A stretch of 20,000 nt of DNA from an uncultured virus (IMG/VR IMGVR_UViG_3300032116_013561). Its lineage: Duplodnaviria > Heunggongvirae > Uroviricota > Caudoviricetes. The notes under the pieces were generated by a model that saw only the letters and a program-made list of their open reading frames with translations, searched no databases and had not been told where the DNA came from. Positions 5,062-15,722 of this stretch are shown here, piece after piece. Numbering within the stretch: the stretch's first letter is position 1; each line of letters begins with the position of its first letter. The stretch is taken from the IMG/VR virus record IMGVR_UViG_3300032116_013561, one strand, 5' to 3'. The position numbers were made by a program, and so were the translations under genes.

Positions 5062-5391
5062 TTAATGTGTTGAATTAAGTTCGTAATTATATTCTTTAAG
5101 ATATTCAACTTCTTTTTGGTGAGCTAGAGCTTTACCTCTAACAACTTCAACAATATAAAGTTCGTAAACATCTTTGTTAAATTTTTTCATATCTCTATAA
5201 AGAGCCCAATCTTTATCTTCCATTTTAGCTCTTGAACAATGTTTGTTAAAACGATTAACAACTGAATAATTTGTTCTTCTACCAATACAGGCCGTAATAC
5301 CCAAATAACTTTTACCATTGAAGGTATTGAAAATTTCGTAAATAATGTGGTTACGGTCAGACCTTTTCTTTCTATTAAGCATATCTATCAC
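5062..5391 (-). CDS. Small GIY-YIG-like nuclease
   Basis: HIIYEIFNTFNGKSYLGIT...RFNKH...AHQKE...LNS gives the GIY/YIG/R/E/N pattern. The start may be ATG 5382 rather than GTG 5391. Confidence 0.75.
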   Translation of the reverse strand: MIDMLNRKKRSDRNHIIYEIFNTFNGKSYLGITACIGRRTNYSVVNRFNKHCSRAKMEDKDWALYRDMKKFNKDVYELYIVEVVRGKALAHQKEVEYLKEYNYELNSTH

Positions 5392-8853: not shown

Positions 8854-10230
8854 TTAGATTCCTATATTCTTCAACCTTTGTAATTCGGTTTGTATATGTT
8901 TATTGTAGGCGTTCCATTTTATATTATCCAACAACCAATTACGATAATAGCCCGGTATTTTACGAACTTCCACATCTTTGTACTTTCCAAAACTCATTTT
9001 AATAACAGGCCCTTGAGCGGCTAATGTATGTGGGTCTGGTTGTCCTTGTTTATGCAATCCTATTTCGTGAAGTGGAATTCCTGTTAATAACTTTTTACCT
9101 TCTCCGTATAATTTCCATAGTGGTTCTTCGTAATCAAAGTATAAATCTTCTACCTTTCCGAACTTTGGTACACTACCCACAAAATCAATTACAAGCCCAT
9201 TTAGCTTCTCAGGATGGATACGAGTTACTCTACCCACAAACTGATACCACCAACTTAAAGATGCCGTAGGTCTTCCCGTAATGATACAATCTAACTGCGG
9301 ATGGTCAAATCCTACCGAAAGAATAGTAACCTGAACAACTATTCTCAATTTGCCACTTTTGAAATCTGAAATAATCCTATCTCTGTCCGCATCTGGCATT
9401 CCGCTAAAGATTGCTTCACAACTTGGTAAGCGAGTGGACAATTCTTTTGCTTCATCAATAGAAGGTACGGCAATTAGAATAGATTTTCTTTCGGGTAATT
9501 CGGAAATCCTTTTAATTATCTTTCCACCAATATCTTGCTGCTTGTAAGCCCTCTTAATACTATCATCCGTATAATCCGCCTTATTAGAATTGTAAACTAA
9601 ATCACCAGTTTCAAAATCGTATGATTCATATTTCAATGGTGACCAAAATCCCATATCACACATCTCCTTAATTTGGGCAACGTGAATAATATCTCTAAAG
9701 AAATTACCTTTTTTACTCTTTGAAGTAAGCATTACCAATTTTGAGAAAGGTTGGCCCCATTGGTCTAAGTTAGCTTGTAGTTTAAGTGGAGTTGCGGTTA
9801 ATCCTAATACGTGAGTTATCTTAGCTGCCGTTAAAAATCTCCTTAACATACCATCCGGCTCCCTTGGAAAACGGTCACACTCATCTATAATCACTTTTCT
9901 GATACCTAATTCGTAAAATTTCCAAGCTATATTAACAATTGAACCAATTGTAGCATAAGTTACATCACCAATCTCCTTTTCATTCATAGATGCGGAGTAA
10001 ATTGATGCTTTTCCGCCTAAATTGATGAATTTGTTGTAGTTTTGCTCCAATAATTCTTTTGAAGGCTGAATAACTAATATTTTCTCACCTAAACGATGAG
10101 CTATTTCAGCAATAACGATACTTTTACCAAATGCGGTAGGAGCAACAATGATAGAAGGGTGCGGCTTCTTACTTTGAAAGAATTCCACACCCTTTTTTAC
10201 AGGTTCTATTTGATTCGGTCTTAATTCCAT
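8854..10230 (-). CDS. SF2 helicase (RadD/YejH-like) with short C-terminal DUF3820-like domain
   Basis: LRPNQ (Q motif), APTAFGKS, IIDECD, GLTATP, SVGFDHP, QFVGRVTR; tail MSFGKYKDVEVRKIPGYYRNWLL. Confidence 0.92.
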   Translation of the reverse strand: MELRPNQIEPVKKGVEFFQSKKPHPSIIVAPTAFGKSIVIAEIAHRLGEKILVIQPSKELLEQNYNKFINLGGKASIYSASMNEKEIGDVTYATIGSIVNIAWKFYELGIRKVIIDECDRFPREPDGMLRRFLTAAKITHVLGLTATPLKLQANLDQWGQPFSKLVMLTSKSKKGNFFRDIIHVAQIKEMCDMGFWSPLKYESYDFETGDLVYNSNKADYTDDSIKRAYKQQDIGGKIIKRISELPERKSILIAVPSIDEAKELSTRLPSCEAIFSGMPDADRDRIISDFKSGKLRIVVQVTILSVGFDHPQLDCIITGRPTASLSWWYQFVGRVTRIHPEKLNGLVIDFVGSVPKFGKVEDLYFDYEEPLWKLYGEGKKLLTGIPLHEIGLHKQGQPDPHTLAAQGPVIKMSFGKYKDVEVRKIPGYYRNWLLDNIKWNAYNKHIQTELQRLKNIGI

Positions 10231-10234
10231 TTAA

Positions 10235-10585
10235 TTATTTAAGATATTCCGGCCCATACACACCATATTGAGCAGTTCCATCAATAATGTTACCTCTAGC
10301 GTGCTTTGCTGGAGCTTTCCAAGTAGCTGCTTTCAACAAATCACCCTTTTTAATTGGTGAACCTTTCAAATCACCATCAACTCGGCTGATAAATCCCCAA
10401 CAAGATGTACCATGCCATATTCTGATGAATTTTGTACCAATTTCAACCACTACCGGTTTGTATTGATTCGGCATATTGGCTTTTTCGTAATACTCTTTAC
10501 GTTCTTTATCCAATTTTTCAATAAATTTAGCTACAATAGGGTTACTTTTTAGGTAATCTAAGGCTTTTTGGTCAGTTTGTCTCAT
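10235..10585 (-). CDS. Conserved phage hypothetical protein (116 aa)
   Basis: WGFI...GDLLKAATWKAPAKHARGNI motif, which I recognise from uncharacterised proteins of large phages. Confidence 0.85.
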   Translation of the reverse strand: MRQTDQKALDYLKSNPIVAKFIEKLDKERKEYYEKANMPNQYKPVVVEIGTKFIRIWHGTSCWGFISRVDGDLKGSPIKKGDLLKAATWKAPAKHARGNIIDGTAQYGVYGPEYLK

Positions 10586-10597
10586 ATTTTTTAATTT

Positions 10598-10756
10598 TTA
10601 TTGATTTTTTAATAAATTAAACGAAAATTTGTTACGAGCCCAATTTTTGCTCTCCTTCTTTTTCTTGTCAACAACGATTTTCTCACGAAATCTTCCATCG
10701 TAAGCTCCAGCTTTCACCATTTCTTGGCGTTTTAACTGATTTTCATACTTTTTCAT
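10598..10756 (-). CDS. Small basic protein (52 aa), possibly ArfA/BrfA-like
   Basis: Not in the ORF track: MKKYENQLKRQEMVKAGAYDGRFREKIVVDKKKKESKNWARNKFSFNLLKNQ*. First gene after promoter 10781-10812. The ORF is well supported; the function is a guess. Confidence 0.8.
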   Translation of the reverse strand: MKKYENQLKRQEMVKAGAYDGRFREKIVVDKKKKESKNWARNKFSFNLLKNQ

Positions 10757-10780
10757 ACAAATACAATTTTTATTACTACC

Positions 10781-10812
10781 TAAAGGTAGTAAATTTTCCT
10801 GAAACTACCAAA
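10781..10812 (-). promoter_or_regulatory. Sigma-A-type promoter with variant -7 (TACCTTTA)
   Basis: TTTG-N20-TACCTTTA. The -7 box lies within the perfect inverted repeat TTACTACC-taaa-GGTAGTAA (10773-10792). Confidence 0.7.
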
Positions 10813-10820
10813 TTTTTTTA

Positions 10821-10845
10821 TAAAACGTTGATTTTCAATTAGTTA
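10821..10845. repeat. Third copy of the 25-bp spaced palindrome
   Basis: taaaacgttgattttcaattagtta = TAA-N4-TTGA-N3-TCAA-N4-TTA. Confidence 0.85.
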
Positions 10846-10970
10846 AACCTTTAATTTTTCCTTAAAAATCCTATTTTTTGGTATTTTTACACATTTTTTG
10901 CTAAAATTGTTGAAACACTATTATAATATATTTCGGATTAATTAGACATACGAATTTTTTTTAATATTTT

Positions 10971-11002
10971 TTTGGAAAATTCAAAAACTTTCTATATATT
11001 TG
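10971..11002 (+). promoter_or_regulatory. Bacteroidota sigma-A promoter for the TonB-dependent transporter
   Basis: TTTG-N20-TATATTTG, about 200 nt upstream of ATG 11204. Confidence 0.85.
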
Positions 11003-11036
11003 TGAAAATTTTACCAAAGATTTGGGAGTTACGATA

Positions 11037-11159
11037 ATGATGGGTTATAATATTATGTTACAGTATAGAACTAAAGCGGATAGTTTTGGAAAAAACAATA
11101 TTCTTGCTACATATAACGTATTTACCTCAATTTTAGGTAAAGGAAAGGGTGTCAGATAA
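11037..11159 (+). CDS. Possible leader peptide (40 aa)
   Basis: MMGYNIMLQYRTKADSFGKNNILATYNVFTSILGKGKGVR*; the stop codon lies in the loop of the leader hairpin. Could be a chance ORF. Confidence 0.3.
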   Translation: MMGYNIMLQYRTKADSFGKNNILATYNVFTSILGKGKGVR

Positions 11160-11180
11160 ACTGAACACCCTTTTTTATTT
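11144..11180 (+). terminator. Terminator-like hairpin in the transporter leader
   Basis: AAAGGGTGT-CAG-ataaa-CTG-a-ACACCCTTT followed by TTTATTT, ending about 23 nt before the ATG. Confidence 0.7.
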
Positions 11181-11203
11181 GGTTACATATTAAACAAAAA
11201 CAA

Positions 11204-14200
11204 ATGCACATGAAAAAAGCAATGTTAATGATGTTGTTATTTATGACAACAGCGTTTATGGGGTTTGCGCAAATCACAACCTCAAACATTTCTGGTGTGG
11301 TTAAAAACCAGAAGGGAGAAACTATCCCTGGCGCTTCGATTCATGCAACACACAACCCAACTGGTACGAATTATTATTCAGTTACCAATAAGAGTGGTGT
11401 GTTTGTGATTCCAGCGGTTAGGGTTGGTGGACCTTACACAATCCACGCTTCATTCGTAGGATTTAAGAAAGGTGAACTTAAAGAAATTAATACATCTTTA
11501 GGTTTAACCGAAAACGTAGAATTTGTATTGGTTGAAGAAGCAGTACAATTGAAAGAAGTAGTTGTATCAGCAAACAAGTATGGTATTTTCTCAAAAGAAA
11601 AAACTGGTGCTGCACAACAATTCGGACGTAGAGAATTAACTACAATTCCGATTACAGGAGCTAGAACTATTGATGGTATCACAAAGTACAATCCATTTGG
11701 TAGTGGTAACTCTTTCGGAGCACAAGACTCTCGTTTGAATAACTTCACAATTGATGGTTCTCAATTCAATAACAATTTCGGTTTAGGTTCTTCCGCACAA
11801 GCGGGTGGTAGAACTGGTGCTTCAGCCATTTCATTAGATGCGATTGACCAATTGCAGGTGAACGTTGCACCATTTGATATTCGCCAAAGTGGTTTCACAG
11901 GCGCAGGTATCAATGCGGTAACTCGTTCCGGTTCAAATGAAATTGAAGGTAGTGTTTATCAAACTCAAAGAAACAATTCATCAACTTATGTTGGTGATAA
12001 CGCAAGAGGAACTACCGTAACTGCGGCTAAGTTTGATGAGAAAGTACAAGGTTTTAGATTAGGTGCGCCAATTATCAAAAACAAATTATTCATTTTTGGT
12101 AACTACGAAAGTATAGAAAGAACTGAGCCGGGTACTAACTGGATTTCAGAAGGTTCACCATTGACGGGTACACAAATCAGTAGAGTAAAATATGCTGATA
12201 TGAAAGCTCTTTCTGATTTTATGAAAGAGAAATTCAATTATGTGACTGGCCCTTGGGAAGGTTATTCTAACACAAATGCTTCTAAGAAGTTTTTGCTTAG
12301 AACTGACTGGAACATTAACGATAAGAACAAATTAACTGCTCGTTATGTTCACCATAATTCTGAAGCGGAGATTAATATTTCAAACTCTCAATCAGCAGGA
12401 GCTGGTAATAGAACTACTCAATTTAATGCAATGTCATTTAAGAACAGTGGTTATATTATTCAAGATAATACTCGTTCAGCAGTATTGGAATTGAACTCAA
12501 ATTTATCTAGCACTTTATTTAACAACTTAATCGTTTCTTACGATAAGCAAATTGAAGATAGAGCTTATATGAGTCAAATGTTCCCAACTATTGATATTAG
12601 AGATGGTTCAGCAACTTATACTTCGGTAGGTTTTGACCCATTTACTCCATCAAATAAGTTGAACTATTGGACATTCAATGTAACAAACAACGTTACAAAA
12701 TATTTGGAGAAACACACTTTAGTTGGTGGTTTTAACTTCCAAAAATATCAATCAAACAACTTATTCTACCCAGCTTCTAATGGTGTTTACATCTTTAATA
12801 GCTTGGCAGATTTCTACACTGCAGCTAATCAATCATTGGCAAATGGTGGTGCACCTTCAACATTTGTACCGGCTCGTTTCCAATTCCGTTATTCAGCTTT
12901 GACTGGCGCAGTTGAACCAATGCAAGTGTTGAAAACAAATCGTTTAGATTTATATGTTCAAGACGAATATAATGCAACTCAAAACCTTAAATTAACTTTT
13001 GGTTTAAGAGCAAACATTATTTCAATTGAAAACACAGCATTAGAAAACAAAGCAATTTCAGCTATGACTTTTGCTGGTGGTGAGAAGTGGAATACAAGTG
13101 TACTTCCTAAAAATCAATTGTTATTTGAACCTCGTTTCGGATTTAACTATGATGTAAAAGGTGAGAAGAAAACACAAATCAGAGGTGGTAGTGGTATCTT
13201 TACTGGTAGACCTCCATATGTGTTCCTTTCTAATCAAATTGGAAACAATGGTGTGTTGACAGGATTTATTGATGTGAGTGGTGCAGCAGCGGCACAATAT
13301 GGTTTCACTGCAGACCCTAACAAATATTTCATTCCTTCAACTCCAACGTTACCATCAACATTTGATTTAGCATTAACTGACCCTAATTACAAAATGCCAC
13401 AAGTTTGGAAATCAAACTTAGCAATTGACCAAAAATTACCTTGGTTTGGATTAGTAGCTAGTGCTGAATTTTTATACAACAAAACAATTAACGCAGTTCA
13501 TTATTATAACGCTAACTTAGATGCACCTGTTGGTACATTAGGTGGTGTTGATGCAAGACCTCGTTACGCTGGTACTGATGCTGGTGTAAGAGTAAACGAT
13601 AACGTATCAATGGCTGCGGTATTAACTAATAGAAATGGGGCTTATAATCGTTCAGCAACATTCAAATTAGAAAAACCAATCTCTAAAGGTTTTTGGGGTT
13701 ATGTAGCTTATACGGCTGCAAAAGCTGAAGACTTTATGGATGCAGGTTCTATCGCAAGTGGTAGCTGGCAATCAGCATTATCTACAACTAACAACAATGA
13801 TTTAGGATTATCAATTTCTTCAAACTTAGTAAGAAATCGTATTGTAGGTTTATTGGGTTATCGTTTAGATTATGGTAAGAAATATGGTGGAGCAACTACA
13901 TTCACTTTAGGTTATGTAGGTTCTCAAAATAATCCATTCTCTTACATCGTAGCTGGTGACTTGAATGGTGATAGAGTATCTAACAATGAATTAGTATTCG
14001 TACCAAACAAAGGTTCTGATATTCGTTTCTCACCATTGACCGTAGGTAGTGGAGCAACAGCGGTAACTTATACTGAAGCTCAACAACAAGAGGCTTTTGA
14101 TAAGTTCATCGCTCAAGACCCTTACCTATCAACTCGTAGAGGTCAATACGCTGAAAGAAACGCATTGGATTTACCAATGTTACATAGATTTGATTTATCT

Positions 14201-14497
14201 ATCGCACAAGATGTATTTGTAAAGATTGGTGGAAAGAGAAATGCTTTCCAAATCAGAGCAGATATTCTTAACTTCGGAAATATGTTGAATAACAAATGGG
14301 GTGTTTCTCAAAGAGCAACTAACCCACAATTGTTGAACTTTGTAAGTAGAGATGCTAACAACGTTCCAACATATAGATTAGCAACTCAAAGAGATGCAAG
14401 CGGTACTTATTTGATTAAAGATACATATCAATTCAATTCTTCAGTATTTGATGTGTGGACAGCTCAGTTAGGTATTCGTTACACATTTGGCAAATAA
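11204..14497 (+). CDS. TonB-dependent outer-membrane transporter, Oar-like, with N-terminal carboxypeptidase-regulatory-like domain
   Basis: Sec signal ending GFA-Q (Gln +1, typical of Bacteroidota); ISGVVKN..GETIPGASI.A...GGPYTI; plug motifs NNFTIDG..NNNFGL and SLDAIDQLQVNVAPFDIRQSGFTGAGINAVTRSG; barrel motifs YVQDE and PRFGFNYD; C-terminal QLGIRYTF. Confidence 0.95.
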   Translation: MHMKKAMLMMLLFMTTAFMGFAQITTSNISGVVKNQKGETIPGASIHATHNPTGTNYYSVTNKSGVFVIPAVRVGGPYTIHASFVGFKKGELKEINTSLGLTENVEFVLVEEAVQLKEVVVSANKYGIFSKEKTGAAQQFGRRELTTIPITGARTIDGITKYNPFGSGNSFGAQDSRLNNFTIDGSQFNNNFGLGSSAQAGGRTGASAISLDAIDQLQVNVAPFDIRQSGFTGAGINAVTRSGSNEIEGSVYQTQRNNSSTYVGDNARGTTVTAAKFDEKVQGFRLGAPIIKNKLFIFGNYESIERTEPGTNWISEGSPLTGTQISRVKYADMKALSDFMKEKFNYVTGPWEGYSNTNASKKFLLRTDWNINDKNKLTARYVHHNSEAEINISNSQSAGAGNRTTQFNAMSFKNSGYIIQDNTRSAVLELNSNLSSTLFNNLIVSYDKQIEDRAYMSQMFPTIDIRDGSATYTSVGFDPFTPSNKLNYWTFNVTNNVTKYLEKHTLVGGFNFQKYQSNNLFYPASNGVYIFNSLADFYTAANQSLANGGAPSTFVPARFQFRYSALTGAVEPMQVLKTNRLDLYVQDEYNATQNLKLTFGLRANIISIENTALENKAISAMTFAGGEKWNTSVLPKNQLLFEPRFGFNYDVKGEKKTQIRGGSGIFTGRPPYVFLSNQIGNNGVLTGFIDVSGAAAAQYGFTADPNKYFIPSTPTLPSTFDLALTDPNYKMPQVWKSNLAIDQKLPWFGLVASAEFLYNKTINAVHYYNANLDAPVGTLGGVDARPRYAGTDAGVRVNDNVSMAAVLTNRNGAYNRSATFKLEKPISKGFWGYVAYTAAKAEDFMDAGSIASGSWQSALSTTNNNDLGLSISSNLVRNRIVGLLGYRLDYGKKYGGATTFTLGYVGSQNNPFSYIVAGDLNGDRVSNNELVFVPNKGSDIRFSPLTVGSGATAVTYTEAQQQEAFDKFIAQDPYLSTRRGQYAERNALDLPMLHRFDLSIAQDVFVKIGGKRNAFQIRADILNFGNMLNNKWGVSQRATNPQLLNFVSRDANNVPTYRLATQRDASGTYLIKDTYQFNSSVFDVWTAQLGIRYTFGK

Positions 14498-14521
14498 TCC
14501 TTATAAACAAACGAAATAATT

Positions 14522-14548
14522 GGGAGTAGAAATACTCCCTTTTATTTT
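14522..14548 (+). terminator. Intrinsic terminator after the transporter
   Basis: GGGAGTA-GAAA-TACTCCC followed by TTTTATTTT. Confidence 0.9.
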
Positions 14549-14576
14549 GCCTTATCGTAAAAAAATCGTATATTTG
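14546..14576 (+). promoter_or_regulatory. Bacteroidota sigma-A promoter for the CpcT/CpeT-like gene
   Basis: TTTG-N19-TATATTTG, 4 nt before ATG 14581; the -33 box overlaps the terminator T tract. Confidence 0.8.
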
Positions 14577-14580
14577 TGTT

Positions 14581-15186
14581 ATGAAAAAATTACTATTAAT
14601 ACTATTCGTATTCCTGTCCATTAACTCTTTTGGACAGATGGATAAAAAAGATTTGAAAGAGTATGTAAAAAGAATTACAGGTACATTCTCAACTTACGAA
14701 CAACACAAAACTGATTCTACATTTGATGATGTTAGAGTTTATACAAAGTTAATTCGTAAAGATGTAAATGGTATCTATTGGGTTTATACTGAGCAAGGTG
14801 AAGCTAAAAACTATGTACCATATCGTCAAAGAGTTTATCAAATTGCATTGGTTGAAGATTATATTAAACTAAGAATATATTATCTAAATGATATTACAAA
14901 ACATTCTTTCTTCAAACCAGAAACAATTAAGAATATTACACTTGCTGATATTAAATTAAAACCCGGTTGTGATTTGAATATAATTTCAAGAGGTGATGGA
15001 GTATATGGTGGACAAACTGATGATAAAAAATGTGTGGCAACTTTTAGAGGTTCTACTTATACAACAACTGATTTTCTAGTATATGAAGATGCTGTTCATA
15101 GTTGGGAAAGGGGATGGAATGATAAAGATATTCAAGTTTGGGGAAGTTCAAAAGGACATTACATTTATAAAAAGATTTCTAAGTGA
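14581..15186 (+). CDS. CpcT/CpeT-family (T-type bilin lyase fold) protein with signal peptide
   Basis: GTFST.EQ, YTEQG, PYRQRVY, GCD, a second Cys (KKCVA), HSWERG..D..QVWG...GHY: the CpcT/CpeT motif series. N-terminal signal MKKLLLILFVFLSINSFG-Q. Confidence 0.88.
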   Translation: MKKLLLILFVFLSINSFGQMDKKDLKEYVKRITGTFSTYEQHKTDSTFDDVRVYTKLIRKDVNGIYWVYTEQGEAKNYVPYRQRVYQIALVEDYIKLRIYYLNDITKHSFFKPETIKNITLADIKLKPGCDLNIISRGDGVYGGQTDDKKCVATFRGSTYTTTDFLVYEDAVHSWERGWNDKDIQVWGSSKGHYIYKKISK

Positions 15187-15722
15187 GTAAGATAATAAAT
15201 TTATTTGGCGGACCATCAATAGGTAAATCCACTCAAGCAGCAGGATTATATTATGAAATGAAAAAAGCAGGATACAATGTTGAGATGCCTTATGAGTTTC
15301 CTAAATTACAAGCATGGGAAAGAAATGTATATGCGGTTAAAGACCAATTTTATATTACGGCTAATCAACATCGTAACATTTCTCGTCTTTATGGACAGGT
15401 TGATTACATCATTGTTGATTCACCAATTCTATTTGGATTAATCTATAAGGATAGGTACAACGAAGAACCAGAATATCCTTCAATGTTTTATGGATATAAG
15501 TTTGATGAATTTATTGTTGATTTACACAAACAATATGATTCTCTTAATATAGTATTAGAAAGAGAACCATCAATGTATCAAGCTGATGGTAGATTCCAAA
15601 ACTTAGAAGAAAGTATGGAGATTGATAGAGAAATTGTTTCTATGCTGGAAAGATATGAAGTTGAATATTTCAAAGTACCAATCAATAATGATACTGCTAA
15701 TATTATAATATCTCTAATATAG
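15183..15722 (+). CDS. P-loop ATPase/kinase (NadR-like AAA_28)
   Basis: IINLFGGPSIGKST, EFPK..AWE, VDYIIVDSPIL, GRFQNLEES.EID; GTGA overlap with the upstream stop. Confidence 0.88.
   Translation: MSKIINLFGGPSIGKSTQAAGLYYEMKKAGYNVEMPYEFPKLQAWERNVYAVKDQFYITANQHRNISRLYGQVDYIIVDSPILFGLIYKDRYNEEPEYPSMFYGYKFDEFIVDLHKQYDSLNIVLEREPSMYQADGRFQNLEESMEIDREIVSMLERYEVEYFKVPINNDTANIIISLI

Follow-up and report, generated by a model that had tools for sequence, protein, structure and literature searches.

The window analysed here, a 20,000-nucleotide stretch of DNA from an uncultured virus of the Caudoviricetes (IMG/VR record IMGVR_UViG_3300032116_013561), carries a gene for a TonB-dependent transporter (TBDT). 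Outer-membrane transporters are usually seen as the doors through which phages enter, not as tools that phages bring with them. The gene is an intact open reading frame (ORF) of 1097 amino acids at 11204-14497 on the plus strand, free of internal stop codons. The window is AT-rich (G+C ~27-40%) and nearly all of its coding lies on the minus strand, the exception being a plus-strand block at 11.2-17.0 kb that the TBDT ORF opens. The next two genes of this block encode an exported CpeT/CpcT-like protein and an AAA_28 P-loop protein; the TBDT has no SusD-like partner, as the initial annotation had noted.

An Oar-type transporter in a phage genome

The protein begins with a signal peptide, read from the sequence (residues 1-23, 11204-11272; MHMKKAMLMMLLFMTTAFMGFA, then Q). 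Cleavage is expected at GFA/Q, and the junction ...G(F/Y)(A/G)Q(I/V)T is identical in all relatives. An N-terminal extension follows (residues 24-110, 11273-11533), of which residues 29-109 match the CarboxypepD_reg family (PF13620, E 1e-16). It leads into a TonB box and plug-like domain (residues 111-245, 11534-11938) and a β-barrel (residues 246-1097, 11939-14497 including the stop codon) ending in ...GIRYTFGK. Residues 239-1029 match the Pfam barrel family PF25183 (OMP_b-brl_4, E 1.5e-52), and the C-terminal GIRY(T/I)FG(K/R) is conserved, with Y1093 and F1095 invariant across 58 relatives.

The plug was located by profile-profile alignment rather than by the Pfam Plug model. A profile of the 58 relatives was aligned by hhalign with six canonical TBDTs from one Dyadobacter genome, picked by their PF07715 matches. 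Residues 27-243 align to residues 30-237 of these proteins (probability 98.4, E 1e-14), a score partly due to the N-terminal extension, as the aligned region comprises the extension, the TonB box and the plug. Within it, LKEVVVSA (residues 116-123, 11549-11572) falls at the position of the canonical TonB box, which we take to have the form L-x-E/P-V-x-V-T. Neither the protein nor the 58-sequence profile matches a PDB sequence, and the protein has no match in PHROGs, NCBIfam or PADLOC.

The CarboxypepD_reg extension and PF25183 barrel, with no adjoining SusD or lid lipoprotein, place the protein among the lid-less TBDTs named after Oar of Myxococcus xanthus, which likewise has the extension and no lid (PMC6434023). 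SusC/RagA transporters are similar in phylum (Bacteroidota), in length (~1000-1100 residues) and in their CarboxypepD_reg extension, though there are differences. No SusD Pfam family occurs anywhere in the window, the protein has no NCBIfam SusC/RagA match, and its barrel belongs to PF25183 instead of PF00593; it is thus not assigned to SusC/RagA. By these sequence features the protein is an Oar-type TBDT with signal peptide, plug and barrel, in agreement with the initial annotation.

The gene lies in a phage genome. Phage-type genes had been claimed on both sides, and indeed UvdE, Hsp20, NT5C, a GIY-YIG endonuclease, PhoH, DUF1599 and a phrog_16 SF2 helicase are found upstream, whereas the downstream side holds small unknown ORFs, some of them common to a 160-kb phage contig. 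The window is identical (100%) over 18,334 bases to a 41.7-kb IMG/VR record (G001) and has its whole gene order in common with that 160-kb contig (L006/G002; CheckV 79%), at protein identities of 41-94%. G002 encodes a T4-like replisome (PolB, sliding clamp, clamp loader, UvsX, a gp32-like single-stranded DNA-binding protein and DnaB) together with ribonucleotide reductase, thymidylate synthase, ligase, Mom-like proteins and a tail fibre. One strand carries 245 of its 254 ORFs, and the TBDT block belongs to the other nine. The complete 179-kb genome G003, bounded by direct terminal repeats, carries the TBDT at 84 kb, TerL at 101 kb and the T4 capsid protein gp23 at 110 kb; TerL and gp23 are also found in a further TBDT-bearing record, G005 (gp23 E 2e-78 in G003 and 7e-63 in G005). 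The junctions helicase-DUF7717-TBDT-CpeT-AAA_28 recur in independent contigs (L004, L006, L007 and L033), which argues for the continuity of the locus. Moreover, between positions 9000 and 17000, fractions of 0.84-0.97 of the sampled words are present in 17 DNA sequencing runs from freshwater and related samples. Counting RNA, 20 runs from 14 studies match, one of which may be the source of the window.

IMG/VR contains 43 loci, 39 of which have a copy 72-91% identical to that of the window, on contigs of up to 179 kb. The gene is intact in 26 of the 39 and frameshifted in one (L036, near residue 302-324), and the remaining 12 copies are cut by the contig end without an internal stop (L007, L012, L013, L017, L027, L031-L033, L035 and L037-L039). 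Co-existing variants may break assemblies inside the gene. In a large protein collection 7999 candidates were scored, of which 4771 are relatives; the 120 best clusters all have 83-99% identity, and in public metagenomes the number of protein clusters with 83% identity or more exceeds 120. INPHARED gave no DNA match, and tblastn against it returned just two short unannotated faecal contigs (32% and 46% identity).

We considered whether the window could instead be host chromosome, the flank of a prophage or a chimeric assembly. Four contigs of metagenome-assembled genomes (MAGs) in genome collections carry copies 74-83% identical, two of them (L046 and L047) beside cellular-looking genes, zinc alcohol dehydrogenase and alanine dehydrogenase, and the 12 viral contigs that end inside the gene could be read in the same way. 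However, G003, a complete genome that has terminal repeats, TerL and gp23, carries the gene midway along its length, and the junctions of the gene recur in several independent contigs and in the runs of many studies. In the 160-kb relative, the 245 ORFs on one strand are phage-like. The MAG labels also disagree with one another: the contigs labelled Gammaproteobacteria and Cyanobium (L044 and L045) hold 81-84% identical copies whose flanking gene clusters are common to phage loci, and they are probably misbinned. We regard the chance that this is not a phage gene as minimal, and an assembly artefact or host origin as very unlikely. The identity to IMG/VR, the syntenic replisome and the TerL and gp23 of TBDT-bearing relatives bear out the viral nature of the contig, for which terminase and capsid genes had been named as the check.

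Origin, selection and movement

The comparison with Bacteroidota homologs proposed in the initial annotation was made with FastTree (108 proteins) and IQ-TREE (34 proteins). In both trees the window groups with 21 other phage sequences and the two nested MAG sequences L046 and L047 in one clade (support 98 in FastTree and 97 in IQ-TREE), which itself lies inside the Bacteroidota TBDTs. Sister to this clade are cellular genes, 66-70% identical, from Cyclobacteriaceae, Sediminibacterium and Odoribacter/Prolixibacteraceae. Three of these sister genes (L054, L057 and L060) have housekeeping neighbours, for example enolase, LptD, PEP carboxylase and NadA. Flavobacterium orthologues, 57-60% identical, come next and are present in 14 of 121 genomes. 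L046 (102-6816) and L047 are short contigs, 74-75% identical to the window copy and on a long branch within the phage clade; they may represent a transfer from phage back to bacterium.

Selection was estimated from the ratio of non-synonymous to synonymous substitution rates (dN/dS) in 23 clade copies, comprising 21 in phage context, L046 and the window, with 249 of the 253 pairs usable. Pairwise values range from 0.06 to 0.20 with a median of 0.137, at a median dS of ~1.06. The signal peptide is the least constrained part (0.34), followed by the N-terminal extension (0.188), the barrel (0.136) and the TonB box with the plug (0.092). No 40-codon window exceeds 0.25, and the plug core falls to 0.03-0.05. 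What variability there is concentrates in a few segments, at residues 84-143, 304-363 and 804-883. Nearly every one of the 23 copies retains the TonB box, L-x-E-V-V-V. Decay of the gene in related genomes, which had been named as a refutation, is thus not what these copies display. Together, the sequence comparisons indicate that the TBDT was acquired once from a Bacteroidota host and has since been maintained by strong purifying selection centred on the plug. The pattern is that of a protein still opening and closing on TonB, rather than of an inert barrel or an arms-race surface.

The gene occurs in about seven different flanking arrangements. The window copy is closer to that of L005 (89%), which has another arrangement, than to that of L004 (81%), which has the same one, and this suggests movement of the gene among related phages. 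On four contigs that have the backbone of the window (L040-L043, ~9500-13260), the slot behind the helicase holds a different Oar-type TBDT, only 36-40% identical to that of the window. The sole full-length copy among them, L041, groups with Prolixibacteraceae genes. This looks like replacement of a cassette.

Proposed importer function, possible cargo and alternatives

Downstream sequence is available for 32 phage relatives. In 13 of them a DNA/RNA non-specific endonuclease (PF01223) is encoded at most two genes after the TBDT, and these cases span three arrangements. Each of these TBDT-linked nucleases has a signal peptidase I (SPI)-type signal peptide and a DRGH or DKGH motif; we take them to be of the ββα-Me type. 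An AAA_28 protein lies within three genes downstream in nine of the 32 as well as in the window, and a Zeta/AAA_33 P-loop protein lies near the TBDT in two. The gene directly 3′ of the TBDT encodes a small protein with an SPI signal in 15 of the 32 and in the window, whereas 17 have no exported neighbour. NT5C and PhoH are near the TBDT in the window itself.

The neighbourhoods of cellular relatives were also informative. In nine of 40 further Bacteroidota loci, with TBDTs 41-60% identical, an exported nucleotide pyrophosphatase/phosphodiesterase (PF01663) lies within 5 kb. In these PF01663-linked loci the TBDT is 41-44% identical, the PF01663 match has an E value of 1e-91 to 1e-99, and six of the genes directly adjoin the TBDT. 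PhoD is immediately upstream in two of the 40, and in L084 (48% identical) the TBDT is followed by GDPD and PF01663 genes. Overall, the relatives with 41-48% identity have PF01663 in 10 of 53 contexts, PhoD in two and GDPD in two. Such phosphohydrolase-linked loci are found on both sides of the tree split that brackets the phage clade. The nuclease and P-loop neighbours in phages and the phosphohydrolase neighbours in cells form two independent lines that both lead to a phosphorus reading.

Two characterised systems resemble parts of this picture. In Bacteroides thetaiotaomicron, ddbABCDEF combines a TBDT with SPI and SPII nucleases for the use of DNA, as described in PMC12478041, so that a TBDT beside signal-peptide nucleases is a real arrangement. 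The ddb TBDT is taken to import nucleic-acid fragments, and the 13 phage relatives with a nuclease resemble the locus in pairing a TBDT with a signal-peptide nuclease. The two differ in that DdbC works with a lid, DdbD (DUF5689), and several nucleases, whereas the phage module has one small nuclease, and the window none. No lid gene was seen beside the phage TBDT, though no search was aimed at a DdbD-like lid. The second system is Fjoh_3841 of Flavobacterium johnsoniae, an orphan TBDT with pf13620 as its only family, which is induced ~2^7.7-fold by phosphate depletion according to Table 1 of PMC8115612. It shares Pfam signature, orphan position and phylum with the phage TBDT, a likeness by description and not by sequence; Fjoh_3841 is cellular and Pho-controlled, and the phage copy differs in having a promoter-like site and a leader of its own.

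We propose that the gene serves a large T4-like phage of freshwater Bacteroidota as a functional auxiliary gene, encoding an Oar-type importer with phosphorus or nucleic-acid cargo, and give this reading as a whole an even chance. That the protein is a functional importer is quite probable; that its cargo is phosphorus or nucleic acid is a more tentative suggestion, somewhat short of even. In the window's lineage, the TBDT would be transcribed from a host-type promoter, exported via host Sec and inserted via host BAM, and would presumably be energised by the host's TonB-ExbBD. It would then allow the cell to import more of a scarce nutrient in the course of a long infection, most likely organic phosphorus in the form of nucleotides, nucleic-acid fragments or other phosphodiesters, which exported nucleases and phosphodiesterases would cut, feeding replication of a genome of at least 160 kb. 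Expression, membrane insertion, TonB coupling, the direction of transport and the identity of the cargo are what we infer in this scheme.

Several observations weigh against the proposal. The Pfam Plug model PF07715 does not match the TBDT, even at E values up to 10. There is no nuclease in the window's own lineage (the window, G001 and the 79%-complete G002), and its AAA_28 protein has no assignable activity, the best solved relative being NadR (1LW7) at a non-significant E of 0.79. Within 7 kb of the TBDT, none of the 15 closest cellular orthologues inspected (53-70% identity) has a gene for a phosphodiesterase, PhoD or a nuclease, and the phosphorus link therefore rests on more distant relatives. 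Likewise, no PPK-like gene (synteny with Fjoh_3841) was found near the 57-60% identical orthologue in five Flavobacterium genomes. The five TBDT-bearing phage records contain no ExbB or TonB of their own. With regard to expression, three RNA runs match only 6-9% of words and give no evidence for it, and a terminator-like hairpin followed by a T run ~25 nucleotides before the ATG, found in nearly all phage copies, may keep it low.

An importer could instead carry iron, haem or bilin, a vitamin, a peptide or a glycan, with the phosphorus link a coincidence of distant relatives. The window pairs the TBDT with an exported protein of the CpeT/CpcT-like lipocalin type, and in the syntenic G002 (L134:8084-9221) a haem oxygenase adjoins a ferredoxin-dependent bilin reductase (PF01126 and PF05996). 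In another phage context (L001 and L005, 6400-15700) the TBDT stands among IscU, IscA, ferredoxin and histone-H1-like Hc1 genes, and the nearest cellular orthologues are orphans without informative neighbours; the marine megaphage receptor discussed below was moreover read as a carbohydrate importer (PMC9723777). Nevertheless, haem oxygenase is present in one of the five TBDT-bearing records and absent from the complete genome, and we rejected haem or bilin as a general role. The CpeT-like pairing is confined to the window's lineage (L004 and L006 of the 32 relatives, plus the window), and the cellular CpeT-like genes in the 12 fetched loci had no TBDT within 1.5 kb in any case. No SusD or glycoside hydrolase is nearby. 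Uptake of NAD precursors was suggested in part by AAA_28 being the Pfam family of the NadR kinase domain, but nadA, nadB or nadC occurred within 7 kb in none of the 40 further cellular loci, and the phage cytidylyltransferase proved nearest to RfaE domain II; with the non-significant match of AAA_28 to NadR, this led us to reject the idea. We consider another cargo unlikely, though of the alternatives on function it deserves the most weight.

TBDTs are common phage receptors, and the gene could serve superinfection exclusion or act as a decoy, by altering which receptors the cell presents or by competing for TonB or BAM, with the neighbouring nuclease destroying incoming DNA in the periplasm. 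A preprint on huge phages proposes receptor interference for such proteins, citing lambda Lom-LamB (10.64898/2026.10.24.761521). The exported nuclease of the 13 relatives would fit, and so would the turnover of the slot in related backbones, as expected of surface-interaction genes. A decoy, however, would have no need of a conserved TonB box, and the strongest constraint falls on the periplasm-facing plug and TonB box (0.03-0.09); given the ceiling on the 40-codon windows, there is no sign of diversifying selection in the loops. PADLOC assigned no defence family to the TBDT, the CpeT-like protein or AAA_28, and gave a weak match (E 7e-5) for the nuclease of one relative. We judge exclusion rather improbable. 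The initial annotation had offered an importer and a decoy side by side; the constraint on plug and TonB box fits the former, while the latter has gained no support.

Export in the opposite direction has a precedent in Oar itself, which is needed for secretion of the protease PopC in Myxococcus (PMC6434023). By analogy, the barrel would release a neighbouring Sec-exported protein of ~200 residues, the nuclease in many relatives and the CpeT-like protein here, and the Oar-group build and the small SPI-signal protein directly downstream in about half of the relatives are compatible with this. The likeness to Oar is one of description, and relatives of the phage TBDT point to import: cellular ones adjoin periplasmic or exported phosphodiesterases, as substrate importers would. 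More than half of the phage relatives lack an exported neighbour, and TBDT export is known from a single case. We hold a pure exporter to be very improbable. A combined scheme, improbable but slightly less so, is nucleic-acid harvesting, in which the barrel would export the neighbouring nuclease or CpeT-like cargo and the barrel or host transporters would re-import the digestion products. If true, an infected cell would feed on DNA and RNA released from cells that had lysed at an earlier stage of the epidemic.

Phage TBDTs are already known in print, and the window gene is a further case. A marine megaphage, Mar_Mega_1, encodes a 'SusC' TonB-dependent receptor (TBDR; PMC9723777), and the preprint on huge phages describes a 22-stranded, transcribed TBDR of Lak phages among 1,603 phage outer-membrane proteins, with phosphate-acquisition genes near such proteins in aquatic phages (10.64898/2026.10.24.761521). 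Like the window, these are full-length TBDT genes in large phage genomes with a predicted Bacteroidota host; in these accounts they are listed or annotated and read as auxiliary uptake genes or receptor modifiers. Relative to what the two sources describe, the present analysis adds an Oar-type, lid-less freshwater clade with a single origin and measured purifying selection. It also adds the cassette-like behaviour of the gene, in its movement and its replacement, its nuclease and P-loop partners in phages, and the phosphohydrolases encoded near cellular relatives.

The gene is under strong constraint in many large lake phages and is widespread (more than 120 clusters and 17 DNA runs), so that infection probably alters what Bacteroidota cells take up. 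Should the transporter carry organic phosphorus or nucleic-acid debris, the phages would provide a shortcut in the phosphorus recycling of lakes. Lid-less Oar-type transporters are a very large, uncharacterised group, and the nuclease-transporter pairs would, if the proposal is true, offer a compact model for their substrate choice.

Regulatory signals and other neighbouring genes

A Bacteroidota-type promoter-like site precedes the TBDT on the plus strand (10971-11002), with TTTG at 10971-10974 and, 20 nucleotides further, TATATTTG at 10995-11002. It is a motif match to what we take to be the Bacteroidota -33/-7 consensus, TTTG/TAnnTTTG, and is kept in L006. In the 160-kb relative the heptamer ATATTTG is found in 23 of 254 upstream regions against 4.6 expected, a five-fold excess. 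The motif TTTTCGTATATTT(A/G) is enriched 6-8 times upstream of ORFs in the same contig and likely represents a phage promoter class read by a host sigma factor. The motif match is in line with the host-type promoter claimed for the gene, although the hairpin between this site and the start codon complicates the claim.

Folding and comparison point to a structured 5′ leader (11010-11186, plus strand) with a 40-codon upstream ORF (11037-11159). The leader (~190 nucleotides) has a minimum free energy of -43.8 kcal/mol (z -3.74), and none of 200 shuffled sequences folded as well. The terminator-like hairpin occupies 11147-11170, ahead of its T run, and the stop codon of the upstream ORF lies in the loop. 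This ORF is open in the window, L006 and L007, among which the upper stem of the hairpin varies yet keeps pairing. The hairpin and T run before the start are present irrespective of the upstream gene and in none of the cellular orthologues. The leader is a candidate attenuator. A riboswitch was considered and discarded, as there is no Rfam match at E values up to 1 and the leader is not common to the cellular orthologues. At the other end, the terminator ascribed to the gene was recovered as a terminator-like hairpin read from the sequence, GGGAGTAGAAATACTCCC (14522-14539), followed by a T run to 14549 on the plus strand.

A second TATATTTG box (14569-14576, plus strand) stands ahead of the CpeT-like gene (14581-15186, plus strand). 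Its product, of 201 residues, matches PF06206 (CpeT/CpcT-like, DUF1001; E 4.4e-32) and has an SPI signal without a lipobox cysteine. Of 301 Bacteroidota genomes sampled, 23 encode an exported homologue (26-34% identity). The trio of haem oxygenase, bilin reductase and CpeT-like protein is known from cyanophages; here the CpeT-like member has a signal peptide. The GTG start of the AAA_28 gene (15183-15722, plus strand) overlaps the stop codon of the CpeT-like gene, and the protein carries the motif GGPSIGKST (PF13521, E 7.7e-9; phrog_2107, E 1.6e-13).

A few further observations concern relatives of the locus. The arrangement of L001 and L005 also includes a heptose pathway with GHMP kinase, SIS and an RfaE-like adenylyltransferase. 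In L015 (13417-16865) the Oar-type TBDT is followed by a second TBDT of 750 residues (Plug and PF14905) and a 399-residue lipoprotein, a build that recalls, by analogy, the phosphate-induced pair Fjoh_0545/0546. Among cellular orthologues, nadA is divergent from that of Odoribacter (L057:4565-9279) and nadB-nadC are directly upstream of that of Cloacibacterium (L053:3043-9267), calls based on NCBIfam equivalogs above cut-off. Finally, the GIY-YIG ORF of the window, which resembles a homing endonuclease, lies between NT5C and PhoH (5062-5391). In L006 and L004, both close relatives, there is no space for it at this slot, and only L040 has a copy (51% identical); it is probably a recent insertion.

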